Virus record (IMG/VR): IMGVR_UViG_3300033076_000117
Span: 204-64,203 of that record
DNA: 64,000 nt
Source of the DNA: a virus
Taxonomy: Duplodnaviria > Caudoviricetes
Strand: one strand, 5' to 3'
The notes under the pieces were generated by a model that had not been told where the DNA came from, did not search any database, and saw only the letters and a list, made by a program, of their open reading frames with translations. The stretch's first letter is position 1. Each line of letters opens with the position of its first letter. The translations under genes and the position numbers were made by a program. Below, in pieces: positions 12,391 through 55,658 of this stretch.

Positions 12391-15300
12391 ATGGCATTAA
12401 CATCACCAGGCGTAGAAGTTACAATCATTGATGAAAGTCAGTATCTTCCAGCCCCAACAAACTCAGTTCCTCTAGTCGTATTAGCTACTGCTCAAAACAA
12501 AGCTAACGCTACTGGAACAGGCGTTGCCGCCGCTACAACGGCTGCAAACGCAGGTAAACTATATCAGGTAACAAGTCAGCGTGATTTGGTAAACTTGTAT
12601 GGTAAGCCGTTCTTCTATTCAACAACAAACGGTACACCTATTCAGGGCTATGAACTGAACGAGTATGGTCTATTGGCTGCTTACTCATTATTGGGTGTAA
12701 CAAATCGTTGTTATGTTCTACGTGCTGATATCGACTTAGCTAGCTTAGTCGGTCAAACTGGTCGTCCAGTTGGTGCACCAGCAGATGGTACTTATTGGTT
12801 GGATACAACTACAAGTACATGGGGTATCTATGAATTCAACAGTTCTACTGGTGACTTCACACAACAAACCCCTATCGTTATTACTGATACGTCTTTAATG
12901 GACAATGGTCTACCTGTACAAAGTATTGGTAGTATCGGTGATTATGCAGTGTATGCGTTGGATATAAACACTCCTCCATTCTCATCACCACGTACATACT
13001 ATCACAAGACTACAACTAATCAATGGACAATTTTAGGATCTTCAGCATGGAGAAGTCACGTTCCAACTATTATTGGAAGTAACTCCCCAACATCATTGAA
13101 CCAAGGTGATACACTAGATATCTCATTGTCAGGTGCTGATCCTTTCACAATTACTGTCCCACTATCACCTAACAACACCGTAACAGGTCTTGCTGATGCG
13201 ATTAATAATTTAGGTTTTGGTTCTATATTTGCCGCAAACGTTGATGGTAGACTTAATATCTACTCTAACCAATTTTGGGTAACAGGTTCTACTACTACAA
13301 ATATTACTATTACTAGTTCTACTGGTACTGTTGTAGAAGATTTGGGTATAACTCAGAATGTTCGTTACAATCAGCCCGTAATACAATATGGAACATATGC
13401 TCAAATGCCATATTGGACTGCATCACAAGCTAACCCTAGACCTACAGGTTCTGTTTGGTTAAAAGTTGGTTCATCTGGTGGTGGTTTGGCTCCAGTAGTA
13501 TCTAAGTATAGTGCGGCTACTGCTTCTTGGATTAAACAACCAGTAGGCTCATATCAATCTGATTGGGCGGCAACAGCACAACTTGACCCAACTGGTGGAC
13601 AAGCTGTTCCTGCTGGAACTATTTACGGTCAATATACATTCAATGGAAGCACAGCTAATAGTCCATATTACCTATGGAAGAGAAGTGCAACTGGTCCTAC
13701 AGTCGTTACGGGTACAGCAACATTCGAAAGTGCAACTGCTCCTGTGTTCAACTCAGGTCCATATAACATGACCATAAATGTTAGCTTGCCAGGTAGTCCT
13801 CATGTATCTTCTCCATATTATTTTATAATTGATGATGGAGCAAGTGTTACTGATTTCATAACTGCGCTATATGGTTCAGGTGTTCCATATGTTAATGCAT
13901 CCGCTGTTGCAGGAACTAATGCTATTCAGCTTACTCACACTGAAGGTGGAGAGATTCTACTAACAGATATCGACCCAAACACTGGTATAAGTTCAGGCTT
14001 GTTAGCAGAAATTGGCATTGTACCTACTGAAACTACAGGTGTAAAGTATGGTCCCGTAGTCAGTACATCATTCTATGATGTACCAGTTTCTTCTACTACA
14101 TCTGCGAGTGGTGCTAACGCAACATTCAATGTTTCAACTCCTGGATACTACAACTTGTTATTGATAAGTGATGGTGGTTCTTTCTATGAAGTTGGTGATC
14201 AAGTTACTCTTTCAGGTGCTGATATGGGTGGACAAGGTCAAGACCTAGTATTAGGTGTAACTAGTGTTGACGGTGGTGGTGCTATTACAGGTGCAACATG
14301 GGTGTCAGGTACAGTAAATACAGCGTACATGGCACAATTAAGTAATTGGCAAGATTTTTCATATACTGCAAATGAAGGAGCTCCTGCTGTTGCACCAGCA
14401 AATAACACAAATTGGTTCTACTCAGTCGTTGATGAAGTAGATATCATGGTTCAAAAGGGTGGTGCATGGATTGGATATCAAAACACTGCGTATGACTCTA
14501 CTGGTCACCCAGCATTTACTGGTGTTAATAATACTGATCCAAATGGTCCAATCATTTCTGCAAGTAAGCCTACTACACAATCTGATGGTACTCCATTAGA
14601 ATATGGTGATTTGTGGATCGATACAAGCGACCTTGAAATGTATCCAGTAATCAGTCGTTGGCAATCAGTTTCTAACGTAGATCAGTGGGTTCTAATCGAT
14701 AACACAGATCAAACATCTACTAATGGTGTTACATTCTTAGATGCACGTTGGGCAACAAATGGCACAACAAGTCCAATTGATGATCCAATACCAACAATTC
14801 AATCATTGTTGACAAGTAATTATCTAGACCTAGATGCACCAAGCCCAAGTCTATATCCACAAGGTATGTTGTTGTTTAACACACGCCGTAGCGGTTACAA
14901 TGTGAAGCAATTCCGTACAAACTATTTCAACAATACTAGTTTCCCTGGTCAATCATTACCAGAGCAAACAAGTGCATGGGTTTCTGTAAGTGGCAATCAA
15001 ACAAATGGTGCACCTTACATGGGTCGTAAGGCACAACGTGCTATGGTTGTTGAATCTCTACGTTCTGTAATTGACACTAACTTGTCAATTCGTGATGAAG
15101 ATAACTACTTCAACTTGATTGCTACACCTAACTATCCTGAATTACAACCTAACATGGTTGTATTGAATGCAGATCGTGGTGAAACAGCGTTTATTATTGG
15201 TGATACACCATTAGGTCTACCTGATAGTGCTACTGATATTCAAGCATGGGCTAACAACGATGCAGGTGCATCAAGCACAGGTGAAGAAGGTCTAGTTACA

Positions 15301-15969
15301 CGTAATACATACTTGGGTCTATTCTATCCAAGTGGTATCGCTAACGACTTAGACGGTAATGAAGTTGTCGTTCCAGCATCACATATGATGCTACGCACAT
15401 TCTTACGTAATGACACAATCGCTTATCCTTGGTTAGCGGCTGCAGGTACACGCCGTGGTAACATTGACAATGCATTGAACATTGGTTATTTGGATCGCAC
15501 AACTGGCGAGTTCCAAGCAATCAAGACACGTATTGGTATCCGCGATGTATTGTATATCAATCAAATCAACCCATTGGTATTCTTCACTGGTGTTGGCTTA
15601 TTGAACTACGGCAACAAGACAAGTTACAACTCTAGCTCTGCATTAGACAGAACTAACGTTGCTCGTCTAGTCAACTATGTCCGTCGTCAATTGACATTGG
15701 CTGCTCGTCCGTTCGTATTCGAACCTAACGATGCATTGACTCGTAATCAAATCGCTGGTGTTGTTCAAACATTGATGGTTGACTTGGTAGCGAAACGCGG
15801 TATTTACGACTACTTGGTAGTTTGTGATGAAAGCAATAACACTCCTGCTCGTATCGACAGAAACGAACTATGGGTTAACGTTGCTATCGAGCCTGTCAAG
15901 GCTGCTGAATTCATCTACATACCGGTTCGTGTTCTAAACACAGGTGAAATCGCAACTCTAAGCAAGTAA
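12391..15969 (+). CDS. gp18: Contractile tail sheath protein
   Basis: LTSPGVEVTIIDES N-terminus; C-terminal VPASHMM, INP, SALDR.NV.RL, FVFEPND..TR, VCDESNNT, IEPVKAAEFIYI. Confidence 0.95.
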   Translation: MALTSPGVEVTIIDESQYLPAPTNSVPLVVLATAQNKANATGTGVAAATTAANAGKLYQVTSQRDLVNLYGKPFFYSTTNGTPIQGYELNEYGLLAAYSLLGVTNRCYVLRADIDLASLVGQTGRPVGAPADGTYWLDTTTSTWGIYEFNSSTGDFTQQTPIVITDTSLMDNGLPVQSIGSIGDYAVYALDINTPPFSSPRTYYHKTTTNQWTILGSSAWRSHVPTIIGSNSPTSLNQGDTLDISLSGADPFTITVPLSPNNTVTGLADAINNLGFGSIFAANVDGRLNIYSNQFWVTGSTTTNITITSSTGTVVEDLGITQNVRYNQPVIQYGTYAQMPYWTASQANPRPTGSVWLKVGSSGGGLAPVVSKYSAATASWIKQPVGSYQSDWAATAQLDPTGGQAVPAGTIYGQYTFNGSTANSPYYLWKRSATGPTVVTGTATFESATAPVFNSGPYNMTINVSLPGSPHVSSPYYFIIDDGASVTDFITALYGSGVPYVNASAVAGTNAIQLTHTEGGEILLTDIDPNTGISSGLLAEIGIVPTETTGVKYGPVVSTSFYDVPVSSTTSASGANATFNVSTPGYYNLLLISDGGSFYEVGDQVTLSGADMGGQGQDLVLGVTSVDGGGAITGATWVSGTVNTAYMAQLSNWQDFSYTANEGAPAVAPANNTNWFYSVVDEVDIMVQKGGAWIGYQNTAYDSTGHPAFTGVNNTDPNGPIISASKPTTQSDGTPLEYGDLWIDTSDLEMYPVISRWQSVSNVDQWVLIDNTDQTSTNGVTFLDARWATNGTTSPIDDPIPTIQSLLTSNYLDLDAPSPSLYPQGMLLFNTRRSGYNVKQFRTNYFNNTSFPGQSLPEQTSAWVSVSGNQTNGAPYMGRKAQRAMVVESLRSVIDTNLSIRDEDNYFNLIATPNYPELQPNMVVLNADRGETAFIIGDTPLGLPDSATDIQAWANNDAGASSTGEEGLVTRNTYLGLFYPSGIANDLDGNEVVVPASHMMLRTFLRNDTIAYPWLAAAGTRRGNIDNALNIGYLDRTTGEFQAIKTRIGIRDVLYINQINPLVFFTGVGLLNYGNKTSYNSSSALDRTNVARLVNYVRRQLTLAARPFVFEPNDALTRNQIAGVVQTLMVDLVAKRGIYDYLVVCDESNNTPARIDRNELWVNVAIEPVKAAEFIYIPVRVLNTGEIATLSK

Positions 15970-25677: not shown

Positions 25678-26307
25678 ATGCAAGTAACACTAGAATTATT
25701 ACAACATATGTGTCCAAAGACAAAACTTTCTGTATTAGAGGGTTATGTTGAGCCATTGAACACTGTCGCAGAATATTATGAAATGACAGCGAACCCAGCA
25801 AGATTAGCAGGGTTCTTGTCGCAAACTGCACACGAATCAGGTGGCTTTAATTTCATTAAAGAAAATTTGAACTATAGTGCTAAAGGTCTAATGACAACAT
25901 TCAAAAAGTATTTCCCTACAGAAGATTTAGCAAAGCAGTATGAACGTAAACCTGAGAAGATTGCTAATCGTGTTTATGCTAATCGCATGGGCAACGGACC
26001 AGAAGAATCAGGTGATGGATATCGTTTCTGTGGTCGTGGATTGATTCAATTAACAGGTCGTCAGAACTATACAAAATTAGCAGAAGATTTGGGAATCAGC
26101 GTTGAAGAAACTGCACAATACTTAGAGACACCTAATGGCGCTGTATCAAGTGCAGGCTGGTTTTGGGATAACAACAACTTGAATAGCTATTGTGATAAGA
26201 ATGATTTTATCACGTTAACAAAACGTATCAATGGTGGTACTATTGGTTTAGCAGATAGACAGCATCACTTTGATGAAGCAATGCACTTTCTAACAAGACA
26301 GGGATAA
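25678..26307 (+). CDS. Glycoside hydrolase family 19 lysozyme (endolysin or baseplate muramidase)
   Basis: FLSQTAHESGGF, ENLNYS, RGRG-type CGRGLIQLTGR.NY, WFW, TKRINGG..GL.DR. Confidence 0.9.
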   Translation: MQVTLELLQHMCPKTKLSVLEGYVEPLNTVAEYYEMTANPARLAGFLSQTAHESGGFNFIKENLNYSAKGLMTTFKKYFPTEDLAKQYERKPEKIANRVYANRMGNGPEESGDGYRFCGRGLIQLTGRQNYTKLAEDLGISVEETAQYLETPNGAVSSAGWFWDNNNLNSYCDKNDFITLTKRINGGTIGLADRQHHFDEAMHFLTRQG

Positions 26308-41753: not shown

Positions 41754-44700
41754 ATGAAAATAAGTGCGATTCTATCTGAAGGCCGTAAAGTTGTATTAGA
41801 GGGCGGCAACTTAGCTATTGGCGGTGAACAAGCCGAACACCTCGACCTAAAGGTAACTAATCGCAGTGTAATGGTACCTATTCTAAATAAACTATTGAAC
41901 TCAATCAATAGTGAGTTTCAAAAACAATATAAACAACCATTATGGAACCCTGCATTACTAAAGAGTGGGCAGTTTCTAAGTGGATCTAGCCTACACTTCT
42001 TCAACGTTCAAGGTATTGATGACGAAACATTCGTAGCAAAGAAACCAACAGTGGGTGACATTGATACAATGGTCAACAAAGAACTAGAAGGCGAGTTGGC
42101 TACATTTTTGACACAGAATCAAGGCAAGATTATAGGCAACGGTAAACTAGTAGGATATCAGCGTGGTAATGAACAGTTTTCTAGTCTATGGGCACTGACT
42201 GACGTACCAGTAAAAGTTCAGATTGACTTAGAATTCGTACAGTTTGACAAAGGTGGTATGCCAACTGATTGGGCACGTTTCAGTCACAGTAGTTCATGGG
42301 ACGATTTACAAGCAGGCGTCAAAGGCGTATTTCACAAGTGGTTGATTCAATCACTAGCCGCACTAACAAAGCGTGACTTCTTATTACGCAAGATGGTTGG
42401 TCGTGGTAAACTACGTAAAGAAGAAGACGTTCCAACAACAGACAACATGTTTAGTTTCGCTGTCTCTAGTAAAGAAGGTGGTGGATTACGTGCTAAGTAT
42501 GAGCCTGTATTAGATGACAATGGACAGCCATTAGTAAAAGATGGATTGCCTGTTATGACTGCGGCACCTACAGCAGGATACTCACAAGACATTGGTGAGA
42601 TATTCACTAAGTTGTTTGGTGAGCGTTTGAATCCTAAGAAACTAAAACAAATACAAAACAAGTTCTGGTCATTCACTGGCTTAGTTGACTTAGTAAAGAC
42701 TATGTTGACTCCAGAAGAACAAGGCAAAGTAGTTACACAGTTCTTAGAAAAGACAATTGGTCCTGGCGCACAGGGCATGTACAAGAACAACCCTGATAAA
42801 GATATTAAAGAAAAGACAACAGCAATCAACTATCTATTGAATGCTGTTGGCATGAAGCCACCTGCAAACTATAATCAAATGTTGCAGACATATAGACAGA
42901 ATTACAAAATGACAGATGAATCAACTAGTCAAGTTGATCCTAATAGAACAAAATTGGCGACAAAAGCCAAAGCGGCGATTGCTGAAGCACCTAATTACAA
43001 GCGTAAAGGTATACAACATATATACAACCCCGGCTCAAGTGTAGAAATAAATGATATCGATTTCATAGAGATGTGTAAAGAAATCGCAGCCGACGGTGGT
43101 AAGTTAGAGAATGCTCCAATCAATCTAAAAGTAGACGGTGCTGGTATTCGTTTCGGAAAAGACGAACAAGGTAGACCATTCTTTATGACCTCTAAGGTTA
43201 CGGAACCTAAATACATTGACAACTACGGTGATTTTGAAGCATTTGGTCGTAGTCAAGGCCAAGATGAACAGCGTTTAGCATTCACTAAAAACTATGACGA
43301 GGCACTAAAGACTATTGTTACTGGTGACTTTATGAAAGCAATTCCTCCTGATACAATCGTTCAGGCAGAAATGTTGTTCAACCCAATGGCAAACAAAGAA
43401 CAAGACGGCTATCGTTTTGTCAACATCCCTTATGATCCTAAGAAATTAGGTTCAGTAATGACATTAGTTCCATTCAGTGTTCGTCAATATAGTACAGGTG
43501 AACAAAGACCTGATAGTCAAAAGATTCGTCAACAACTTATCAAAGATTCTACAAAGCAAATCAAGATGGTAGACAACCACTTGAAACATGGCGGTATTGA
43601 TGTAAGCAAGATTGTGAACCCTATTGCTAAGAATGGTGATAAGTTGGCAGCGGCTATAAAGACACGTGGCATGACTCCTGAGAAACAGAAAGCAATGGAG
43701 ATTGTTTCTAATGCTAAGAAGTCTTTGAGCGAAGCAATTTACAATGCCCCTATCAATGGTAAAGATGAGTTGGGAAGCAACATTGAAGGTCTTGTAGTCA
43801 ACTTACCTAGCGGCAGACTAGTCAAAGTTACAAGCCCTGAAATGAAACAAAAGATGGCTGCTAAAATGGCGGCTAACAAGAAGCCAACGACAGGTGGCAA
43901 TCGTAATCGCCCAGCAGTTGTAACTATCGGTAGTTTCGTTGGACACAGAGGTCACGAACAATTAATAAATCAAACTATTGCTACTGCAAAACAGATGAAT
44001 GGAGATCCATACATCTTTGTTAGCCCAGTAGTTGGTCCAGATGATCCTATTCCACCAGATGTAAAACTACAAACTCTACGTAAACTATATCCACAATACG
44101 CTGACAACATTCAAACTTGGAATGCTGAAGGCTCACCAATGAAGAAGATTGAAAAAGAACTCGTTCTTCCAGCAAACAGTCCATACAATAAGATTGTATT
44201 GTTAGTGGGTGATGACCGTTACGAAGGCATGAAGAAGTGGATGGATAGTCTAGAAAAGCGTATGAAAGATCCAGTTGCACTTGCTAAGTACGGCGGAACA
44301 CAGAATCAAGTTGACTTTGAAACTGTTCGTACAGAACGTGATCCAAGTAAAGGTGGTACTGGTATTAGCTTTACTCAGTTGCGTAACAAACTAGCAGATC
44401 CTAATGCTAGTGAGCAAGATAAACTAAATTTCTGGATGCAAGCATTTGATGGTCAGAAATTAGGTCCACAATGGATCAAACATTTGATGGATGTTACTGC
44501 ACAGAACATGGGCTTGAAACAACAGCAAATCAAAGAGTTTATTGAGCGTGTAAAGCCATTGTTGCCTACTGCATCAGAAGAACAAAAAGCTAGAATCTAT
44601 GAAATGTTAAGTAGGTACAAGTCTCAATTAGTTGAGGGTTTTGGTACTGGTTATCCAGAAACATACGAAGAAGAAAACGGTCCATTCCAACACAAAGGTG

Positions 44701-45095
44701 GATATCGTATCACTGATATGACAACCGAAGAGCATGTTCATACTGCGCCAACAATGGCTGGATACAGAACATACAAGCCAAGACATGTTCCAAGTCAAGT
44801 AGAATTGGATGCAGAAGATGAAACTTTGGGTGAAAAGATGGATCCTGAGTTAGCACAGATTATGGCGTATGCTCAACAACATTATCCAAGTTCAACATCT
44901 AAACAAGAAGCGTTTATGAAATTCGTACAACGTTCATTAAAGCATTCTAAAGAAGATGATATGGAACAGAACGATGAAATTATGAGCATAAAGAAAGCCA
45001 TAAATGATTTGGCACATGAACATTTGGAAATCAAACGTGCTATCAATGATTTACACAATGTTACCGAAAACTCTGATTATCTAGAGGAAAAATAA
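41754..45095 (+). CDS. Multi-domain protein: Pol-beta-like NTase + ligase-like KxDG domain + HxGH cytidyltransferase
   Basis: GDID (42054-42065), KVDG (43128-43139), EGLVV (43785-43799), GHRGH (43941-43955); N-terminus MKISAILSE. Confidence 0.65.
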   Translation: MKISAILSEGRKVVLEGGNLAIGGEQAEHLDLKVTNRSVMVPILNKLLNSINSEFQKQYKQPLWNPALLKSGQFLSGSSLHFFNVQGIDDETFVAKKPTVGDIDTMVNKELEGELATFLTQNQGKIIGNGKLVGYQRGNEQFSSLWALTDVPVKVQIDLEFVQFDKGGMPTDWARFSHSSSWDDLQAGVKGVFHKWLIQSLAALTKRDFLLRKMVGRGKLRKEEDVPTTDNMFSFAVSSKEGGGLRAKYEPVLDDNGQPLVKDGLPVMTAAPTAGYSQDIGEIFTKLFGERLNPKKLKQIQNKFWSFTGLVDLVKTMLTPEEQGKVVTQFLEKTIGPGAQGMYKNNPDKDIKEKTTAINYLLNAVGMKPPANYNQMLQTYRQNYKMTDESTSQVDPNRTKLATKAKAAIAEAPNYKRKGIQHIYNPGSSVEINDIDFIEMCKEIAADGGKLENAPINLKVDGAGIRFGKDEQGRPFFMTSKVTEPKYIDNYGDFEAFGRSQGQDEQRLAFTKNYDEALKTIVTGDFMKAIPPDTIVQAEMLFNPMANKEQDGYRFVNIPYDPKKLGSVMTLVPFSVRQYSTGEQRPDSQKIRQQLIKDSTKQIKMVDNHLKHGGIDVSKIVNPIAKNGDKLAAAIKTRGMTPEKQKAMEIVSNAKKSLSEAIYNAPINGKDELGSNIEGLVVNLPSGRLVKVTSPEMKQKMAAKMAANKKPTTGGNRNRPAVVTIGSFVGHRGHEQLINQTIATAKQMNGDPYIFVSPVVGPDDPIPPDVKLQTLRKLYPQYADNIQTWNAEGSPMKKIEKELVLPANSPYNKIVLLVGDDRYEGMKKWMDSLEKRMKDPVALAKYGGTQNQVDFETVRTERDPSKGGTGISFTQLRNKLADPNASEQDKLNFWMQAFDGQKLGPQWIKHLMDVTAQNMGLKQQQIKEFIERVKPLLPTASEEQKARIYEMLSRYKSQLVEGFGTGYPETYEEENGPFQHKGGYRITDMTTEEHVHTAPTMAGYRTYKPRHVPSQVELDAEDETLGEKMDPELAQIMAYAQQHYPSSTSKQEAFMKFVQRSLKHSKEDDMEQNDEIMSIKKAINDLAHEHLEIKRAINDLHNVTENSDYLEEK

Positions 45096-46109: not shown

Positions 46110-48146
46110 ATGGACCTCAAAGAATTAGAATCATTCAAACTAGGTGATGCTGTAAAGTTTCACGACAAACTGAACCCAAAACTGTGGCATGGTCAACACC
46201 TACAGCCCGAAGTAAAGAAGCAATTACTAGTGATTGCGGAAGATTTCCTACAAGAGTTAGGCATCAGTGGATTGAACGTAAAAGACATTACAGTATCCGG
46301 TAGTAACGCCGCATACAGTTACACACCACACAGTGATTTAGACTTACATATCTTGGTAGATATGAGTAAACTACCAAATGATGACGTTTACCAAGAACTA
46401 TTCACTGCCAAGAAAACATTGTATAATGACAGCCATGATATTAGTATTCATGGGGTACCAGTAGAATTGTATGTACAGGACAGTAATCAACCTGTTGTCA
46501 GTCTAGGCGAATATAGCTTAATGAATGACAAGTGGTTGCGTATTCCTACAAAACGTAGAGCAAATTTTGACCAAACAGCTAGTAAGTCCAAGTACGAGAA
46601 ACTAGCAAAAGTCATTGATTACGCACTACAATCTGATGACTTACATAAAGTCATGGATGTATTAAAGACTATCAAGCGTTATCGTCAAGCAGGATTAGAT
46701 AAAGGTGGTGAGTTTGGACCAGAGAATCTAGCATTTAAAGCATTGCGCCACCAAGGGTACATTACGAAGTTATATGCGTTGCGTGATAAGTTACATAGCG
46801 ATACATTGACAATTGAGAATATGTATCAGAATCCTGAGTTGGACAAGCCAACTAAGAATGTCAGTCAGATTGCTAAAGACCACGATGTTGAAAAATTAGA
46901 AGTCTTGTTACAGTTGATAAAAGGTGTCAAAGTAGAAAAAGAACATACTAGCGTAGGTAGCGTTGCTAGAGAAATCGCACTAGATCATTTAGACGAAAAC
47001 CCACGTTATTATGATGAATTAGCAAAAGTAGGATTAGAAGAAGATAGTGAATCTGAAATTCACAACTACGAAAAGCTAGACAAGATATTGAATAAACTAT
47101 GTGAAATGGTTGTCAAGGGTCAAAAGTCTGACAAAGACTATGGCATGGTTGCCGCTTGTGTATTAGATCCAGATAACAATATAGTAGCTGGTTTGAACAT
47201 GCCTGGTAAGAATGGCAAAAGAATTCATGCCGAGCGTGTTGCTGTAGAGAAATATGAAAAGAAATATGGCGAAGTTCCTGAGGGTAGTATTGTAATCACT
47301 ACACTAAGTCCTTGCAATGAATCTGACGATGAAACTGCTGAAGATAGAGAAGGTGAAAGCTGTACTGATTACTTGAACATTAAGGGCATCAAGAAAGTCT
47401 ATTGCGGATATATTGATCCTACACAAGACAATGACCAACGTCAGTTCAATTTGATGGAAACTAGCAATAAAGAGATACGTGAAGAATGTAAGAAATTTGC
47501 CGACACTTTCTTGGATACAGAAGATTTGACTGAATCATTCGACCAACCCTATCCTATGAAGTGGGAAAGCAGTGGTTATGGTGATGTGGATGCATTGGCA
47601 AGATTACCAGATGGTAGTCCACTAAGTATCATGTTCAACCAGCAACAAGGTGATGATGGCGAAGAAACAGTGCAGGTTGAATTCTATAGAAACAACAGTC
47701 AGGAAGTCACAGGTGAAGGTGACGCACAAAGAATATTTGCTACTGTGTTAGCCGCCATTCAGAAATATATAAAGAAATATAAACCCCTACGCTTGACATT
47801 CTCCGCTAGTAAAGACAACTGGGCAAAGCAACAACAGAATAGTGAAAGTCGTGCTAGTTTATACGATAGGCTGGTTCAGCGTTATAGTAAGTCTTGGGGC
47901 TATAGAGCATTTAGAGCAGATAACGGTGACTTGGTTATCTATGAATTGAATAGAATAAACAAGAATATGTCTGAATCCTCATCAGGATACATTCCAAGCA
48001 ATGCTGAAAAAGACGATCCACGCTATAAAACAGCACTAACAGTAGATATCAAGCCTGATACAATGATGAAAAACGCTAAGAAATTAGGGTCTAAAATCAG
48101 TCGTGCAGGTATCCCTCCAACATTGAAGGCAAGTGGTAAGTTCTGA
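46110..48146 (+). CDS. Modular protein: nucleotidyltransferase + DUF5661-like + Zn-dependent deaminase + unknown modules
   Basis: SGS...SDLDLH; GVKVEKEH...IALDHL; HAE...PC...C; modules separated by LEE, LTE, MSE. Confidence 0.65.
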   Translation: MDLKELESFKLGDAVKFHDKLNPKLWHGQHLQPEVKKQLLVIAEDFLQELGISGLNVKDITVSGSNAAYSYTPHSDLDLHILVDMSKLPNDDVYQELFTAKKTLYNDSHDISIHGVPVELYVQDSNQPVVSLGEYSLMNDKWLRIPTKRRANFDQTASKSKYEKLAKVIDYALQSDDLHKVMDVLKTIKRYRQAGLDKGGEFGPENLAFKALRHQGYITKLYALRDKLHSDTLTIENMYQNPELDKPTKNVSQIAKDHDVEKLEVLLQLIKGVKVEKEHTSVGSVAREIALDHLDENPRYYDELAKVGLEEDSESEIHNYEKLDKILNKLCEMVVKGQKSDKDYGMVAACVLDPDNNIVAGLNMPGKNGKRIHAERVAVEKYEKKYGEVPEGSIVITTLSPCNESDDETAEDREGESCTDYLNIKGIKKVYCGYIDPTQDNDQRQFNLMETSNKEIREECKKFADTFLDTEDLTESFDQPYPMKWESSGYGDVDALARLPDGSPLSIMFNQQQGDDGEETVQVEFYRNNSQEVTGEGDAQRIFATVLAAIQKYIKKYKPLRLTFSASKDNWAKQQQNSESRASLYDRLVQRYSKSWGYRAFRADNGDLVIYELNRINKNMSESSSGYIPSNAEKDDPRYKTALTVDIKPDTMMKNAKKLGSKISRAGIPPTLKASGKF

Positions 48147-48191
48147 TTAGTATAGTATTTGATAAATACAATATTAGTTTGGAATTTTACT

Positions 48192-48809
48192 ATGCGCTTT
48201 AAAGAAATATCAGAAAGTACCGTAGCAGGAGCAATTGCTCCTGTAGAATCCGCTGGTTTTGTGAAAATGAAAACCCGTGGTCCAGTAGTTTACGGTGACA
48301 CAACACCTCAAGACCTTGTAAAGAAAAAGAAAAAGGGCCAGTACTCTAATTCTATCGCTGAGGGTAAACAAGTTGACGAAGCAAAACTTGAAGAAGAAGA
48401 TATTATCGTTATTCCAGGTCACAGTGGAAAGCGTAAAACAGGTTTTGTACCAAGAGGTCAAAGTCGTGTAGACCACGAAGTTGAAATGGCACGTAGCGAC
48501 TTGCTAGCAACACTAAAAAATGCTAAAGCATTGTATGAACTACTAGAGCATCGTAGCGAAGAAGAAGGTCTAGAAGGCTGGGTACAAGAAAAGATTATCA
48601 AAGCAAGCGACTACCTAAACGCTGTAAAAGAATACTATGACGAAAAGAGTGTTCAACAAGAAGGTGCCAAAGTAGACCGCATGGTAAAGCACATTGAAAA
48701 GTCTGAACGTAAACTAGGTAAGTCAAAAGACGAAGCAGAAAACATCGCATGGGCAACAGCTAACAAGCGTGGCATGTTAGACAACAAGAACAAGAAAAAG
48801 GGCAAATAA
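48192..48809 (+). CDS. Putative internal head protein
   Basis: Late promoter 48162-48168; start MRFKEISE; internal IAE, VDE, LEE sites. Confidence 0.55.
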   Translation: MRFKEISESTVAGAIAPVESAGFVKMKTRGPVVYGDTTPQDLVKKKKKGQYSNSIAEGKQVDEAKLEEEDIIVIPGHSGKRKTGFVPRGQSRVDHEVEMARSDLLATLKNAKALYELLEHRSEEEGLEGWVQEKIIKASDYLNAVKEYYDEKSVQQEGAKVDRMVKHIEKSERKLGKSKDEAENIAWATANKRGMLDNKNKKKGK

Positions 48810-50848
48810 TGAGCAACATCCTAAGAGGTTTGACCCTAAACGAAGGTTTGTACGATGAACTCAAAGCAGAAGGTGATCGTAAGATAGCCGCTATCAAAGC
48901 CAACCCAGAAGCATACAGCAAACAGTATGGTATTCCATTAGACCATAAACACTTCATTGGTGCTGTATTAGTTGCTATGGATCGTGAAGAACAACGTGAA
49001 AAACAAATCAAACGTGACGCTGATAACAAAGCACGTTATGATGCAAGTAGACAGCAACAACTAGCACAAGATAAAGAAAACATTGACCAATTGAAAGCAC
49101 AATTGGCACAATTAGAAGCACAATTTGATCCTAGTTATGAATACAGTGATGACTATACATTCTGGAATAAACAGAAAGATATCGGTGGTCAGATTCGTGC
49201 GTTGAAAAAGCGTATCAGTGATGTTGAAGGTCAACAACTTGATGAACTAAGTCCACAAACACTAGCAAGTTACAAAAAGAAAGCTGGTGCTGATGCTACT
49301 GCCGCAGACAAGCGTGGCGACTTTGCTAGAGGTAACAAACGTATGAGTGGTATCATGCAGGCTACTCGTAAAGAATTTGACAACGATACCAAACGATCTA
49401 ACGCAAGGTCACAAATCAAGACAGATGACAACTTACGAGCATACTACGCACAGCGCAAACAAGAAAAGCAGGATGTTGAAGAAGTTAGCCGTCGTGGAAT
49501 ACTAAAAGGCCTTGCGGCAGCAGGTGCATCAGCTATTGCTCCAGCATTTGCCAAAGGTGGCGGCGGAGGTGGCCGAGGAGGCGGTGGTGGCAGAGCATCA
49601 GGTGGTGGGAGAACAACTGTAGGTCGTGGACCACAAAGTGCATCACATGTTAGTGACGCACCACATAGCACATTTCACCCAGGCTCTCCGTTCTATCCAG
49701 TAGTAGGAGGTCACGGTGGTGGCACACATACTGCTAATGATGCTGACAAGAAAGAATACATCAAGTTCTTAACAAGTTATGCTAATGCTATTCGTGCAGG
49801 TAAGATGACTCCTGAAATGCGTAAGTGGTTGACACAGCACCCTGAAGTCATTGAGGACTTGAAGCGTGGCAAGTATGGACTAACTATGGGTCAACTAAAC
49901 GCAGACTTGGTAGACATTGAATCTCGCAAGAATTATCACTTGATGCGTGAAGGTTCTGACGAACCTAATCTTTCAAAAATGTCAGTTGATGAACTCAAAC
50001 AACATATTGAGGAATTGACCAACTCCGCATCAGAATTCTTTGGTATAGAACGATCATATATCAATATGGATATTGCTAAGGCTAAGGCAATGCTACGCAG
50101 AAAATTAAAGCAAGGTGTGGCGGAAGACGATGCCGGCGATGTTGAACAGCGTATGATTGCTAAAATAGAAAAAGAAAAACAACGTTTAGCAAAACTAAAG
50201 CAGACTGATCCAGAAGCATACAAGCGTGAAATGGCTAAGCGTGAAGCAGACCGAGCAAGAATGCCAGCAGTATCTACATTTGAAGAACAAAATGTAGCGG
50301 AAGATAAGGTAAGTCAGTTACACAAAGCGTGGGACAAGGCATTAAAGACAAAGCCAGTTAGTCCACAACAGCAACAGCGTAACCGTGAGCGTTGGGCACA
50401 GCGTCAAGCAGAAAAAGAACAAGGAAGCAAAGATATGAAAATCGATGAACTAGCAATCAATGAAGATTGGCAAAAAGTCAACAAGAAGGATAAGACTGAT
50501 GGTATGAGTAGCAAAGCAGTCAAAGCATATCGCCGTGAGAATCCAGGTTCTAAATTAAAGACTGCGGTAACTACAAAACCCAGTAAACTAAAGAAAGGTT
50601 CTAAAGCCGCGAAGCGCCGCAAATCTTTCTGCGCTAGAATGAGTGGCATGAAGAAAGCACATGCTAATGCTAAGACTAAACGAGATCCAGATAGCCCAAT
50701 CAATAAGGCATTGCGCCGTTGGAACTGTGAGTCCATTGAGCAAATGGAACAGTTAGTAATGATTGCTGAACAGAAAATTGCTGAAGCAAAAAATGCTAAA
50801 CAACAGGCTGCTATAGCAATTGCTAAGAAAGCCGCAAAAAAGGGTTAA
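48809..50848 (+). CDS. Modular putative internal head polyprotein with internal Tat-like signal and DUF6321-like C-terminal module
   Basis: Modules after LNE, LDE, VEE, MRE, VAE, INE, IAE; VSRRGILKGLAAAGASAIAPAFA; RRKSFCARM...ALRRWNC. Confidence 0.55.
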   Translation: MSNILRGLTLNEGLYDELKAEGDRKIAAIKANPEAYSKQYGIPLDHKHFIGAVLVAMDREEQREKQIKRDADNKARYDASRQQQLAQDKENIDQLKAQLAQLEAQFDPSYEYSDDYTFWNKQKDIGGQIRALKKRISDVEGQQLDELSPQTLASYKKKAGADATAADKRGDFARGNKRMSGIMQATRKEFDNDTKRSNARSQIKTDDNLRAYYAQRKQEKQDVEEVSRRGILKGLAAAGASAIAPAFAKGGGGGGRGGGGGRASGGGRTTVGRGPQSASHVSDAPHSTFHPGSPFYPVVGGHGGGTHTANDADKKEYIKFLTSYANAIRAGKMTPEMRKWLTQHPEVIEDLKRGKYGLTMGQLNADLVDIESRKNYHLMREGSDEPNLSKMSVDELKQHIEELTNSASEFFGIERSYINMDIAKAKAMLRRKLKQGVAEDDAGDVEQRMIAKIEKEKQRLAKLKQTDPEAYKREMAKREADRARMPAVSTFEEQNVAEDKVSQLHKAWDKALKTKPVSPQQQQRNRERWAQRQAEKEQGSKDMKIDELAINEDWQKVNKKDKTDGMSSKAVKAYRRENPGSKLKTAVTTKPSKLKKGSKAAKRRKSFCARMSGMKKAHANAKTKRDPDSPINKALRRWNCESIEQMEQLVMIAEQKIAEAKNAKQQAAIAIAKKAAKKG

Positions 50849-51338: not shown

Positions 51339-51889
51339 GAGATATCATAGAGTTACTTGAAGATAAGTCAAAGCCGAAAGACGTTGAAATTATCCAGTTG
51401 AACTTCATTGAGCGTGAGGTTTCTCCTGTTATGAGTAAAGAAACTCTAGACTTACACTATGGTAAGTTAGCACACGGTTACGCAGAACGATATAACAAGA
51501 ACGAAGGCGACAAAGACTTCAACTATGCAGGGGTATTCTTGCATAACATGTTGTTCACTCAGTATAGAGAAGTAAGAAACAACAATAAGCCAAACGGTCC
51601 TATGGAAGGTTTCATCAACAAACATTTTAGTTCATATGATGATATGAAAACTAAGTTCGAAGAAGAAGCAATGAAGATTCAAGGCAGTGGTTGGATATAC
51701 TTAGCAGAAGATGGATCAATCAAAACAATCAAGAACCACGAAGTACGCAACGACATACTATTATTGATTGACTGGTGGGAACATGCTTTTATATTAGACT
51801 ATGGCAGTGATAAGAAAAAGTATTTAAAAGAACAGTGGAAGATCATAAACTGGAACGTTATAAATACTCGATGGGGTAAGAGTTTATGA
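51335..51889 (+). CDS. sod: Fe/Mn superoxide dismutase with CTS-like N-terminus
   Basis: LHY, LHN, QGSGW, IDWWEHA..LDY keep the four metal ligands (H, H, D, H). Confidence 0.85.
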   Translation: MRDIIELLEDKSKPKDVEIIQLNFIEREVSPVMSKETLDLHYGKLAHGYAERYNKNEGDKDFNYAGVFLHNMLFTQYREVRNNNKPNGPMEGFINKHFSSYDDMKTKFEEEAMKIQGSGWIYLAEDGSIKTIKNHEVRNDILLLIDWWEHAFILDYGSDKKKYLKEQWKIINWNVINTRWGKSL

Positions 51890-53331
51890 GAGCAAATGAG
51901 TTCATCACTGAAATATTTCAACCTGGTAAGAAGAACTGGGAATGGCTACGCCGTGGTAGTGAAGAGGCAACCGCACAATTTAAAGTTGGCGATAGAGAAT
52001 ATCGTTGGGATGCATTTACTCAAAGAGCAAATGATAAAAAGTGGGAAGTACAATTTCGTTTGATACGACAACGTACTGATCCTGATGGATTAGACTTGTT
52101 TGGAAAAACAGGTACAGGTAATTCAGCAGAAGTATTATCTACAGCAGTAGATATCACACGTTCATTTATCAAAGAATACGGTCTAGACAAAGTAGAAGAA
52201 ATTACGTTCAACGCAAAAGAAGATAGTCGTATTGGCTTATACGCTAAGATGATAAAGCGTTTATTACCTGATTGGGACTTGTATCAAAAATACAGCAAAG
52301 ACATGGGAATGGAATATCATTTGACTGACCGCCGAGCATATGATAAGCCTGAAAACAAACTAAGCGAAGAAGCTAAAGCCGCCAAGTATAACGGCTTGAT
52401 GATGAAGTACGCATTCAATGACAATGCTTTGATACTAAAAGCATTTACAAAAGAGGGCCCAATAGCTTACGTTAAGTTTGTTAAAGAAGATAAAGAATTA
52501 TATCCACAGGATTTATGGACACATGATGACTATCGCAATCGTGGTATTGCTAAGTCAATGTATGATTACCTAAAGAGTGAAGGTTATGTAATCAATAGAA
52601 GTCATGACCAAACTAAAGCTGGTGCAGGATTCTGGGATAAACATCGCGGTGAAGATGCTTATGTTTGGGAAGAAGAAGTCATTGATGAAATGCCACTACC
52701 AGCTGATTGGGACCCTCAACAGTTTCATCAACCAAGCACAAGTTTCAAATCAAGATTACAGTACGCATTAGACCGTGCGGCAAAGTTAGGTACAGGTTCA
52801 AGTCGTGTTGCTACTACAATCGAATATCAAGGTCGTCCTACTGTATTGAAGATTGCTAAGAATCAAAAAGGTCTAGCACAGAATTCAGTAGAAGCAAGTA
52901 TATTAGATGATGGATATGCTAGTCAGATGGGCATATTAATTCCGTTAATTGACTACGATGAACAGAATCGTGAACCAAGTTGGATTCACACTGAGATGGC
53001 TACAAAAGCAAGTGATAAGAAACTTGCTAATATGATGGGTGTTGATAATCTCAGTCAACTTGTAAACATGGCATGGGCTATTACAGGTAAAAAGAAATAT
53101 CTAGGAACATACCAACAGTATGTTGATTACCTACAACAAAAAGGTAAAACTGACCAAGAAATTGAAACAGCAAGTGACTACGCAAACAAACTAGCAGAGT
53201 TGAATAGTTCATTCGATGTTGAGTTGGGCGACTTTACTAGAGCGGCTAACTGGGGTATATATCAAGGGCAACCAGTTATCATTGATGTTGGTTTCAACAG
53301 CAACGTATTAAATCAATATTATAAGAGATGA
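51886..53331 (+). CDS. Modular protein: unknown module + GNAT acetyltransferase + protein-kinase-like domain
   Basis: MRANEFITE; YRNRGIAKSMY (acetyl-CoA motif A); LGTGSSR, VLKIAK, GDFTRAANWG, IIDVG. Confidence 0.65.
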   Translation: MRANEFITEIFQPGKKNWEWLRRGSEEATAQFKVGDREYRWDAFTQRANDKKWEVQFRLIRQRTDPDGLDLFGKTGTGNSAEVLSTAVDITRSFIKEYGLDKVEEITFNAKEDSRIGLYAKMIKRLLPDWDLYQKYSKDMGMEYHLTDRRAYDKPENKLSEEAKAAKYNGLMMKYAFNDNALILKAFTKEGPIAYVKFVKEDKELYPQDLWTHDDYRNRGIAKSMYDYLKSEGYVINRSHDQTKAGAGFWDKHRGEDAYVWEEEVIDEMPLPADWDPQQFHQPSTSFKSRLQYALDRAAKLGTGSSRVATTIEYQGRPTVLKIAKNQKGLAQNSVEASILDDGYASQMGILIPLIDYDEQNREPSWIHTEMATKASDKKLANMMGVDNLSQLVNMAWAITGKKKYLGTYQQYVDYLQQKGKTDQEIETASDYANKLAELNSSFDVELGDFTRAANWGIYQGQPVIIDVGFNSNVLNQYYKR

Positions 53332-53972
53332 GAGCCACAGAATTTATAAGTGAAGATATATCACGAAGAGGCTTTCTAGGGGGTCTTGCTGGTATGGCTG
53401 CAGGTTCAGCAATGGGCAAGCAAATGCCACAACAAAAACCCGTTGAAGAACCACCAAACTTACTAAGCAATAATCCAGCTAACGAAACTACATTATTGAA
53501 AACTGCTAAGAAGGCAGGCATGAAGGGTCCTGAACTAGCACAGTTCATGGCACAAACAAAGCATGAATCTTGGGACTTTGAACGACTAAAAGAAAAGCCA
53601 CAACCTGGTGTCAAAGATTATTACAATAAGAAATACGACATTCGTTATAGCCCAAGAACAGCAAAGATATTAGGGAACAAACATCCAGGTGATGGTCACA
53701 AATATCATGGTCGTGGTTTTATACAATTGACAGGTCGTGATAACTATCGTATGGCAGGACAAGCATTGGGCATTGATTTGTTAAATCATCCTGAATTAGC
53801 TAGTAAGCCAGACGTTGCCGCACAAATTGCTGTATGGTATTGGAATACAAGAGTAAAGCCTAGCATACATAATTTTGCTGATACAAGGGCTGTCACACAA
53901 AAGATCAATCCAGCTGCCAAAGGCTTAGAAAACAGACACGAAAATTTTAAAGACTACATGAGAATAATATGA
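53328..53972 (+). CDS. GH19 lysozyme with CTS-like leader followed by Tat signal
   Basis: MRATEFISE|DISRRGFLGGLAGMAAGSAMG; AQFMAQTKHES, YHGRGFIQLTGRDNY, WYW, T.KIN. Confidence 0.85.
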   Translation: MRATEFISEDISRRGFLGGLAGMAAGSAMGKQMPQQKPVEEPPNLLSNNPANETTLLKTAKKAGMKGPELAQFMAQTKHESWDFERLKEKPQPGVKDYYNKKYDIRYSPRTAKILGNKHPGDGHKYHGRGFIQLTGRDNYRMAGQALGIDLLNHPELASKPDVAAQIAVWYWNTRVKPSIHNFADTRAVTQKINPAAKGLENRHENFKDYMRII

Positions 53973-54790
53973 AAAGAATAATAACAATACTCACACTGAC
54001 ACTAGCTACATTATCAGCAAACGCATGGACACAACGTGCTCCGTTTCCAGTTCAGCAATGTCAAAAACATGCCCCTTATGGCTTCCCTAATACAACTAAT
54101 GTACAGCCATTATGCCAGCAAGCATATCTAGTAGGATACGATGCATCTGCTAAATTACCTAAATTCGTAACCTATGAACTACTACCTCAAAACGCTCTCG
54201 GCTGCTTCCCTCGTACTAATGCTTTCGTTGCTAATCAATATGTTCAGAATGGCCCCACTCCCGACGATTACACAGGTACTGGATTCGATAAAGGACATGC
54301 CGCACCCGACGGTGACTTATCATGGGATCAACAAGTAGAGTATGAATCATTCTTGATGACTAACATGTTCCCTCAACGTGGTTCATTGAATCGTGGTATT
54401 TGGAAACTATTAGAAACAAGTGTACGTGGTTGGGCAGTGCAAAAGAATCAAAGCTATACAATTTACGTTGGCGCACTATACAATGGTACTGAGAAGAAGA
54501 TCGGTAAGGGAGTTATTGTACCTACAGGATATTACAAGATTGTAATCAACAATGTAACTAAAGAAGTCGCTGGTTGGGGATTCCCGCACGTTGATCCTTA
54601 TCCTAACTTAGGAAATGACTTGACTAAGTTTCGTGTTCCTCTAGCACAGATTCAACAAGCCGCAGGAGTACAATATGCATTCCCTCAAGGTGCAGTTGAA
54701 CTACAGCCTGGAAAAGAATGGACTGTCGATTTTGGAGCACTCACAAACGCAAAGCGCACTAAATGTGGCGCAAACGCATCAGCAGATTGA
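53969..54790 (+). CDS. DNA/RNA non-specific endonuclease (NucA/EndA family) with Sec signal peptide
   Basis: MKRIITILTLTLATLSANA; DKGHAAP, SFLMTNMFPQ...LNRGIW..LE...R, VPTGYYKIV. Confidence 0.9.
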   Translation: MKRIITILTLTLATLSANAWTQRAPFPVQQCQKHAPYGFPNTTNVQPLCQQAYLVGYDASAKLPKFVTYELLPQNALGCFPRTNAFVANQYVQNGPTPDDYTGTGFDKGHAAPDGDLSWDQQVEYESFLMTNMFPQRGSLNRGIWKLLETSVRGWAVQKNQSYTIYVGALYNGTEKKIGKGVIVPTGYYKIVINNVTKEVAGWGFPHVDPYPNLGNDLTKFRVPLAQIQQAAGVQYAFPQGAVELQPGKEWTVDFGALTNAKRTKCGANASAD

Positions 54791-54817: not shown

Positions 54818-55093
54818 ATGGCAACTACACACGAAATTACTTCAGATTTAGCCGAATTCAAAAATTGGGATGAATGGATGGAATCAAATCCAGATGTTTC
54901 TCCTGAAGAATTAGCTCAATACAAAGAAACTAATGTTCCTGGTAAAGAAGCAGAACATAGTGAAAAGTTTTTCAACAGATACGTTGAATGGGTTAAAGAT
55001 CAAAAAATTAACCACACACAGATTTTTACCGATGAAGCAGGTAAAGTAACTACTGATAACGTAACGCACGAAAATATTGATGAGATTCTCTGA
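54818..55093 (+). CDS. Hypothetical acidic protein
   Basis: Late promoter 54790-54796; SD AAGGAG. Confidence 0.6.
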   Translation: MATTHEITSDLAEFKNWDEWMESNPDVSPEELAQYKETNVPGKEAEHSEKFFNRYVEWVKDQKINHTQIFTDEAGKVTTDNVTHENIDEIL

Positions 55094-55658
55094 TATTCTT
55101 ACTGAGTCTGCCGCCAGCGAACTAGCACAAAAATTGCCTAGTTTGAAGAAGCACGACTACAATACCATTGACAAACTTGTAAGAGTGGTTGCAAATAAGC
55201 ACAAGATTTCCAGCCACGCACTAAACAACTTGTTCGTCACTAAGTTTCATCAAACACCTGATAAATGGATCAAAGGTAAGTTAGATGAAACTGATACAAG
55301 TGACCTAGATATACAAGATGAAGTAGACAAGTTTGCTCAATGGACAGCAAGACGTTTGCATCTCAAAACAATACCAAAAATTGAACTAAGCTACGATACA
55401 CAAGAAGCCCAAGATGGACACCATACTGGTCGTCACACTGAGGGTACTAATGAAGTTTGGGTATACGCAAAGAATCGTAATTTGGTAGATATTCTTAGAA
55501 CCGTTTTTCATGAATTGGTACACTGCCGTCAAAGTGAATTGGGTATGATAAAACCAGGTGACAGTTATCCTGGTAGTCCAATTGAAGTTATGGCAGACAT
55601 GTTGGCTGGCAAATACATGAAAATTTACGGCGAACAACACCATCACATCTTTCAATAA
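55080..55658 (+). CDS. Zincin-like metallopeptidase with CTS-like N-terminus
   Basis: MRFSDILTE; RTVFHELVHCRQ (HExxH) and downstream E..A. Confidence 0.65.
   Translation: MRFSDILTESAASELAQKLPSLKKHDYNTIDKLVRVVANKHKISSHALNNLFVTKFHQTPDKWIKGKLDETDTSDLDIQDEVDKFAQWTARRLHLKTIPKIELSYDTQEAQDGHHTGRHTEGTNEVWVYAKNRNLVDILRTVFHELVHCRQSELGMIKPGDSYPGSPIEVMADMLAGKYMKIYGEQHHHIFQ

Follow-up and report, generated by a model that had tools for sequence, protein, structure and literature searches.

A GH19 muramidase of an uncultured T4-like jumbo phage with a leader resembling a capsid-targeting sequence and a predicted twin-arginine signal peptide

Phage enzymes that cut the cell wall reach it by several routes. 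Secretory and signal-arrest-release (SAR) endolysins, such as Lys44 of the Oenococcus phage fOg44 and Lyz of P1, are exported by the host Sec system before lysis, and ejection proteins with muralytic activity, T7 gp16 among them, act in the periplasm while leaving the virion and are not known to bear a signal for Sec or for twin-arginine translocation (Tat), or a leader of the capsid-targeting type. Among bacterial enzymes, the cell-division amidases AmiA and AmiC of Escherichia coli are peptidoglycan hydrolases exported by Tat. To our knowledge, the proteins that phages inject either work in the host cytoplasm, like Alt and the internal proteins of T4, or provide an entry conduit (T7, P22). 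The T4 proteins IPI, IPII, IPIII and Alt carry a capsid-targeting sequence (CTS), are processed by gp21 and are injected (PMC3012670), Alt being cut at I-T-E-6 and L-T-E-619 (PMC5694885). For the polyvalent proteins of Iyer et al. 2017, injection followed by cleavage into separate units has been predicted, and lysozyme domains are among their listed components; leaders, signal peptides and membrane segments are mentioned 0 times in that paper (PMC5512222). Here we describe a GH19 muramidase gene (53328-53972, hereafter GH19 53328) that combines traits of these systems. It lies in a window of 64,000 nucleotides, the whole stretch analysed (positions 204 to 64,203 of IMG/VR record IMGVR_UViG_3300033076_000117), which is nearly the entire 64.2-kb virus contig.

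A preliminary description of the locus had placed a GH19 lysozyme at 53328-53972 and divided it into a leader (MRATEFISE), an SRRxFL motif with a Gly/Ala h-region, and a GH19 domain. Both the call, an open reading frame (ORF) of 214 amino acids (aa) on the + strand, and the layout are confirmed, and the parts are as follows.

53328..53354, + strand: leader, residues 1-9 (M-R-A-T-E-F-I-S-E), with a T4 gp21-type site, I-S-E, at its end

53355..53417, + strand: predicted Tat-type signal peptide, residues 10-30, assigned from the model TIGR01409 and from conservation in 17 homologues

53418..53471, + strand: Pro/Gln-rich linker, residues 31 to about 48, with low predicted local distance difference test (pLDDT) values up to residue 36

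53472..53972, + strand: GH19 catalytic domain, residues about 49-214, and stop codon, assigned from PF00182, PDB matches and a structural model

We give a probability of about 0.4 to the reading that GH19 53328 is packaged in the head, trimmed by a protease and exported in the next host by means of the Tat signal thus freed. Residues 1-9 would be the counterpart of the T4 CTS and would carry the late-made enzyme into the prohead core; a gp21-type prohead protease would cut it after E9; the processed enzyme would be ejected along with the DNA, the Tat system of the new host would move it to the periplasm, and signal peptidase would release it there. As with T7 gp16, a wall-cutting domain would be stored in the head and released at infection. 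The basis for this reading is the anatomy of the sequence, its conservation, modular swaps among relatives, the late-promoter context, and the protease gene of G001, a relative of the phage with a complete 364-kb genome and terminal repeats, which we reached through the GH19 gene.

The leader is not confined to GH19 53328. Variants of it begin three or four genes of the window (51886, 53328, 55080 and 48192) and 8-10 otherwise unrelated genes of G001, in which the nine-residue pattern is found 8 times where composition predicts 0.12, 8/8 at ORF starts; a strict DNA pattern for the leader has six matches in G001 and none in the control. An exhaustive search for relatives of GH19 53328 gave 416 cluster representatives at E <1e-30, the best 150 of which were analysed. 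Of these, 142 start with M and yield the consensus M-R-A-x-E-F-I-x-E, with E or D at position 5 in 120 and F, L or I at position 6 in 120. We considered the possibility that the leader is a recombination scar at the DNA level and rejected it, since the paralogous leaders of two neighbouring genes use different synonymous codons, which argues that the peptide itself is conserved and under selection. Nor is it a mere n-region of a Tat signal, a candidate rejected because the same leader stands on signal-less proteins and the Tat motif is found elsewhere without an adjoining leader.

The T4 sequence with which the leader had been compared proved to be correctly quoted, T4 ipII and ipIII both beginning M-K-T-Y-Q-E-F-I-A-E. 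Judged from these sequences, the leader resembles the T4 CTS in its basic position 2 and its terminal E-F-I-x-E, a likeness that is short but specific. Further traits in common with T4 are an [LI]-x-E site, a gp21-family protease in the lineage and the sharing of one short N-terminal tag by unrelated proteins of one phage. In G001, genes for a portal protein, a gp21-family protease, a scaffold-like protein and a gp23-family capsid protein adjoin one another; the protease matches PF03420 at 95.5 bits, and the capsid protein has L-A-E/S (the slash marks the cut) at what would be the positional homologue of the site where T4 gp23 is cut. The lineage thus encodes a protease of the family that matches the leader's I-x-E site. 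There are also differences from T4: the tag here, predicted from gene sequences, has 9 residues instead of 10; the T4 internal proteins are cytoplasmic and signal-less, whereas the cargo here is a periplasm-type enzyme with a predicted export signal; and the GH19 relatives include many long polyproteins, each with more than one cut site in its interior. Tags of this kind were also seen outside the lineage. A protein of the cultured T4-like cyanophage S-SRM01 of Synechococcus (L043, MW015081.1, 4620-5942), annotated as a cytidyltransferase, starts with the ten-residue T4-CTS-like tag M-K-N-F-H-Q-F-I-T-E, so that CTS-type tags may occur on enzymes in Kyanoviridae too, and the small hypothetical protein of T4 gene 61.1 (NC_000866.4, 18966-19130), outside the known ip genes, starts with the CTS-like M-K-T-F-K-E-F-I-K-E.

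Residues 10-30 have the makings of a genuine Tat signal peptide, the export itself being a prediction. The arginines R13-R14 lie in S-R-R-G-F-L-G (residues 12-18), where n-region and h-region meet, in keeping with the Tat motif (S/T)-R-R-x-F-L-K; the sequence satisfies the TatP expression RR.[FGAVML][LITMVF] (PMC1182353). The hydrophobic region (h-region), G15-G30, is an uncharged Gly/Ala stretch of 16 residues with a mean Kyte-Doolittle value of 1.14, compared with 1.69 for the Sec signal of the next gene. The full-length protein scores 17.9 bits over residues 11-30 with NCBIfam TIGR01409 TAT_signal_seq (cut-off 16.7), which is also passed by buried R-R copies in the relatives P0001 and P0012. 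A peptidase-type site follows, A-M-G/K31 in GH19 53328 and A-D-A, A-E-A or A-Q-A before K in relatives. In 17 stand-alone homologues with identities down to 46%, M1, E5, R13, R14, G15 and L17 are invariant, and by this comparison the conservation of leader and R-R signal exceeds chance. Like AmiA and AmiC, GH19 53328 is a peptidoglycan hydrolase bearing a twin-arginine signal, here a predicted one, for the periplasm; unlike it, the two amidases are the cell's own, come from another enzyme family and lack a leader of viral type. With secretory and SAR endolysins it shares a weakly hydrophobic, Gly/Ala-rich N-terminal export or anchor signal on a phage muralytic enzyme. It differs from them in that the signal is Tat-type rather than Sec-type, lies behind a leader and a protease-type site, and recurs inside polyproteins.

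The enzyme itself is a GH19 muramidase. Pfam PF00182 matches residues 59-186 (E 9.7e-17, 62 bits, cut-off 25.5), and the PDB matches are to GH19 endolysins with E-values from 1e-29 to 1e-17 (7r6s, 1e-29; 4ok7, 1.5e-19). The catalytic H-E-S...E motif (H79-E80 and E89, the glutamates being nine positions apart) aligns with those of 7r6s and the 4ok7 endolysin and is invariant in the 17 homologues, whereas the linker differs in length between them. An AlphaFold2 model built on the alignment of these homologues has a confident helical domain at about residues 45-214, with its first helix starting at residue 50, and leaves residues 1-36 with pLDDT <50 and without packed structure. The best PHROG match is "endolysin". 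Pfam finds one catalytic domain, so that GH19 53328 is to be seen as a solo module of the polyvalent-protein family and not as a polyvalent protein itself. A second, plain GH19 reported earlier in the window was also found, with neither leader nor signal:

25678..26307, + strand: plain GH19 paralogue, matching phrog_181 endolysin at E 6.7e-73, among tail-fibre/baseplate-type genes

Over the catalytic domain the two paralogues are 33% identical, and the endolysin-family score of the plain one is far above that of GH19 53328. Both are retained in G001, which suggests that the two GH19 copies have separate tasks.

Among the best 150 representatives, GH19 53328 is the stand-alone form of what is, by sequence, a very common module made of a signal-like segment and GH19. 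In most relatives the module forms part of a multi-enzyme polyvalent protein that begins with the leader. Most of these proteins have 250-1,759 residues, with GH19 at or near the C-terminus, preceded by an uncharged Gly/Ala-rich stretch of 13-25 residues that is often followed by A-x-A-type sites. Three classes of junction can be told apart: 18/150 have the R-R type, [LIV]-x-E followed by D-[ILM]-[ST]-R-R-G-F-L (one case being doubtful), 75/150 have [LIV]-x-E followed by [GD]-W-[KR] (hereafter the E-G-W-K type), and 57/150 have other forms. The glutamate motif [LIV]-x-E stands just before the signal-like segment in 15/17 R-R-type and about 72/75 E-G-W-K-type representatives. Whether homologues keep E/xxSRRxFL, a check suggested in the preliminary description, is answered in two ways, by the 15/17 R-R types that keep the [LIV]-x-E junction on the one hand and by the 75/150 of E-G-W-K type on the other. 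The junction of [LIV]-x-E and Tat motif is kept whether it lies behind a nine-residue leader or behind 80-570 residues of other domains, and all stand-alone Tat-type copies keep the leader (5/5 among unbiased representatives).

The domains joined to the GH19 module in relatives are ART-PolyVal, GNAT, ParB_N, LysM and Amidoligase_2, and these multi-enzyme relatives place the family among the polyvalent proteins (PMC5512222). As in those proteins, GH19 is chained in relatives to ART-PolyVal, GNAT, ParB_N and other unrelated enzymes; unlike them, GH19 53328 is a single-enzyme, stand-alone protein, and the processing enzyme proposed in PMC5512222 is a zincin and not a prohead protease. In one relative (P0066) ART and GNAT domains are C-terminal to GH19, and since cytoplasm-type enzymes thus follow GH19 in some polyproteins, the chains must be cut apart to work. 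In a GH19 tree (FastTree, weak overall) the R-R and E-G-W-K types swap between close relatives, with 15 changes over 18 rows, at least 5 of them forced by well-supported branches, which fits two interchangeable export signals.

The gene lies in what appears to be a late operon, the elements of which are listed below.

51860..51867, + strand: T4-late-promoter-like box ATAAATAC, which precedes the leading gene of the operon (51886) by 19 nt

51886..53331, + strand: upstream partner, 481 aa: leader, N-terminal domain without a family name, GNAT domain, phrog_4301 domain

53969..54790, + strand: downstream partner, a DNA/RNA non-specific endonuclease (PF01223, E 1.9e-36) with a Sec-type signal and no leader

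The box ATAAATAC occurs 13 times in the window against 4.35 expected, a number reached in 0/100 shuffles, and 13/13 copies are on the + strand just upstream of genes, the sheath gene included (12329, 22159, 48162, 51860 and 54790 are among the sites). It is one base off the T4 late promoter TATAAATA and, given this distribution, is probably the late promoter core of the phage. The exact T4 sequence was also tried as the phage's box and rejected, having 3 copies against 5.25 expected and thus no excess. In G001 ATAAATAC lies directly upstream of just 2-3 of 10 leader genes, which makes any association of the leader with the late promoter no more than suggestive. ATGA overlaps join 51886 to 53328 and 53328 to 53969, which, together with the upstream box, indicates that the three genes form one late operon. 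In L004, P0001 and P0003, parts of the 51886 protein and the GH19 module form in-frame fusions, and the order of GH19 and nuclease genes is kept in L001. The leaderless nuclease with its Sec signal in a late operon implies that the phage draws on the export machinery of the producing cell while GH19 53328 is being made; the nuclease may be periplasmic or released, with superinfection exclusion and post-lysis DNA clearing as candidate roles. Next to GH19 53328 we found a GNAT protein, the nuclease and a 91-aa soluble protein, and no holin or spanin candidate adjoins it; unlike a canonical lysis-cassette endolysin, it brings its own predicted export signal. Homologues of the nuclease (L041, L042) occur in two metagenome-assembled genomes (MAGs), one of Gammaproteobacteria and one of Flavobacterium, on contigs of 3.7 kb and 6 kb that are probably phage fragments binned into the MAGs. 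A host assignment from these matches was rejected, as they are 70-75% matches on short contigs in two MAGs of different phyla.

Other genes of the window bear a leader or a buried signal. Two of them are directly relevant here.

49475..49564, + strand: second Tat-like signal, residues 223-252 of the 679-aa protein encoded at 48809-50848, matching Pfam TAT_signal over residues 226-242

55080..55658, + strand: leader-bearing 192-aa protein with an H-E-L-V-H (H-E-x-x-H) motif and no Pfam match

The signal of the 48809 protein is complete, with S-R-R-G-I-L-K, an h-region and A-F-A/K; it stands behind V-E-E and is followed by a poly-Gly tract, a conserved domain of no known family and a C-terminal DUF6321. 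The same signal module follows different N-terminal cargo in P0165-P0167 (nucleotidyltransferase, GH19 or other), and P0167 carries both E-G-W-K-type and R-R-type segments. A "GVAE" junction motif, tried as a genome-wide signal, was rejected because it is confined to the gene 48809 family. The 55080 protein is a candidate zincin-type processing protease from its motif; no curated peptidase family in Pfam or NCBIfam matched it, and its only cultured-phage relative is a weak one, a 132-aa protein of S-SRM01. For the ORF at 48159-48809, the box at 48162 and a leader-type start, M-R-F-K-E-I-S-E, at 48192 favour an internal ATG, the mechanical start (TTG 48159) being probably wrong. Leader-like starts are also seen in a 1,113-aa protein with a cytidyltransferase-like part (41754-45095) and in a 678-aa protein with dCMP deaminase and DUF5661 domains (46110-48146), which, from their domains and starts, look like further polyvalent cargo.

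The window is a fragment of a T4-like jumbo phage genome of roughly 360 kb, with an estimated completeness of 18%. Its T4-type traits are a gp43-type DNA polymerase, a clamp-loader-like gene, a gp15-like protein and a tail sheath, the nearest cultured matches of the sheath being in Atu_ph07, Phosso, PA5oct and SCTP-2 (about 47% identical across about 60% of its length). The sheath (12391-15969) is unusually long, with 1,192 aa, and its cultured jumbo-phage matches cover that 60% in two pieces, implying a large lineage-specific insertion. Megablast of the locus against cultured phages gave no match, and no TatA gene was found in the phage records examined.

Several observations weigh against packaging followed by export in the next host. 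The twin arginine is a minority state in the family, 18/150; in G001 the GH19 copy, with 79% domain identity, shows K-K instead and lacks F-L; and L004, an IMG/VR relative, is a 626-residue polyprotein without the basic pair. Conservation of the arginines, which the preliminary description had made a test of its proposal, thus holds for 17/17 stand-alone homologues and fails across the family. The Tat signal had also been described as hidden behind the leader, and this is not borne out, since the uncut protein passes TIGR01409 and leader plus signal amount to only 30 residues; natural Tat signals average 37, the extra length lying in the n-region (PMC1182353). By the model, a nine-residue leader would not mask the signal and the uncut precursor would be Tat-competent, so that part of it may be exported in the producing cell; masking is plausible only in the long polyprotein relatives. 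The score with Pfam TAT_signal PF10518 (17.1 bits) is under the cut-off of 22.7, and the A-M-G site appears weaker than the A-x-A sites of relatives. A gene for a gp21-type protease is not within the window, which represents 18% of the genome, and the strict DNA pattern does not find the leader in the cultured phages PA5oct, XacN1, Atu_ph07 and S-SRM01. The benefit that a few exported lysozyme molecules would bring early in infection is not obvious. Finally, a Sec-exported nuclease that would be made together with GH19 53328 keeps export in the producing cell a live rival. Of the idea that the enzyme is packaged, matured and then exported, what stands is thus the recurrent leader, the protease of the lineage and the conserved junction; what does not is the hidden state of the signal and a family-wide R-R, and the operon with the Sec nuclease supplies a competing account.

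In that account, which we consider possible though doubtful, GH19 53328 is a secretory late muramidase: residues 1-30 would be one ordinary Tat signal, and the enzyme would be exported in the producing cell alongside the nuclease, serving lysis as a Tat counterpart of Sec-exported and SAR endolysins or some other periplasmic task, with the leader having another role or loading only a minor fraction into heads. The TIGR01409 match of the full-length protein, the long n-regions of natural Tat signals, the late operon with translational coupling to the nuclease, the endolysin-typical size and the "endolysin" PHROG all agree with it, as does the relative P0155, in which a plain N-terminal membrane anchor replaces leader and signal. 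It leaves unexplained, however, the retention of the leader in every stand-alone Tat-type copy, the conserved [LIV]-x-E before the signal and the presence of this module as far as 1,600 residues into ART/GNAT/ParB proteins; no holin or spanin candidate adjoins the gene, and the conserved plain paralogue, with its much stronger endolysin-family score, is at hand. Alternatively, the enzyme could be delivered by the virion and need no Tat at all, its cleaved Gly/Ala N-terminus inserting in the membrane on leaving the tail tube in the periplasm, where GH19 would widen the hole in the wall and the basic pair would be a mere flank of the segment. T7 gp16 and the muralytic, membrane-active part of T5 Pb2 are parallels for such an entry enzyme. 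This would account for the state of most relatives, which have a hydrophobic segment and no R-R, and for the swapping of junction types on the tree; the GH19 proteins L026 and L027 of cultured phages, which have hydrophobic segments and adjoin tail genes, fit as well, and polyvalent lysozyme domains have been assigned to wall breaching at invasion (PMC5512222). We regard it as improbable, as S/T-R-R-G-F-L-G-G would hardly stay invariant among relatives of 46-89% identity if it were a flank, nor would a flank repeatedly pass a curated Tat model; the uncharged stretch, at 13-20 residues, is short for a membrane-spanning helix, and the A-x-A-type sites after it recall those of cleavable signal peptides.

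Cutting could, in another version, take place in the cytoplasm through a phage zincin-type peptidase (55080-55658 or a relative), with export following and no packaging required. The leader-bearing H-E-x-x-H protein 1.1 kb downstream of GH19 53328 would be at hand for this, and metallopeptidase processing of polyvalent proteins has been proposed (PMC5512222). Its lack of a match to any curated peptidase family, the fit of the [LIV]-x-E junctions to the T4-type prohead protease rule, the gp21-type prohead protease encoded by G001 and the leader's likeness to the T4 CTS, which goes beyond a bare cut site, make this version quite unlikely in our view.

A broader scheme, which we put forward with more doubt than conviction, is that a two-step address code is shared by uncultured jumbo phages of a large T4-like clade. 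The leader would load enzymes and polyproteins into the head, and cuts by the prohead protease at [LIV]-x-E would create N-termini that are Tat-type or Sec-like signals; after injection the new host would export the GH19 and 48809 modules, and modules without a signal would stay in the cytoplasm. Our literature searches found no Tat signal on phage internal or ejection proteins and no Tat-exported phage lysin, an absence that is not proven because subscription journals were mostly uncovered. If GH19 53328 is packaged, trimmed and exported as proposed, the phage would sort injected cargo between compartments of the host by means of the host's own export system, and the prohead protease would be the switch that arms the export signal. 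This would widen the view of virion-delivered cargo and would explain the fusion of wall-cutting domains to cytoplasmic enzymes in polyvalent proteins. Should export occur in the producing cell instead, GH19 53328 would be a Tat-using phage lysin, a kind not described in the literature searched.

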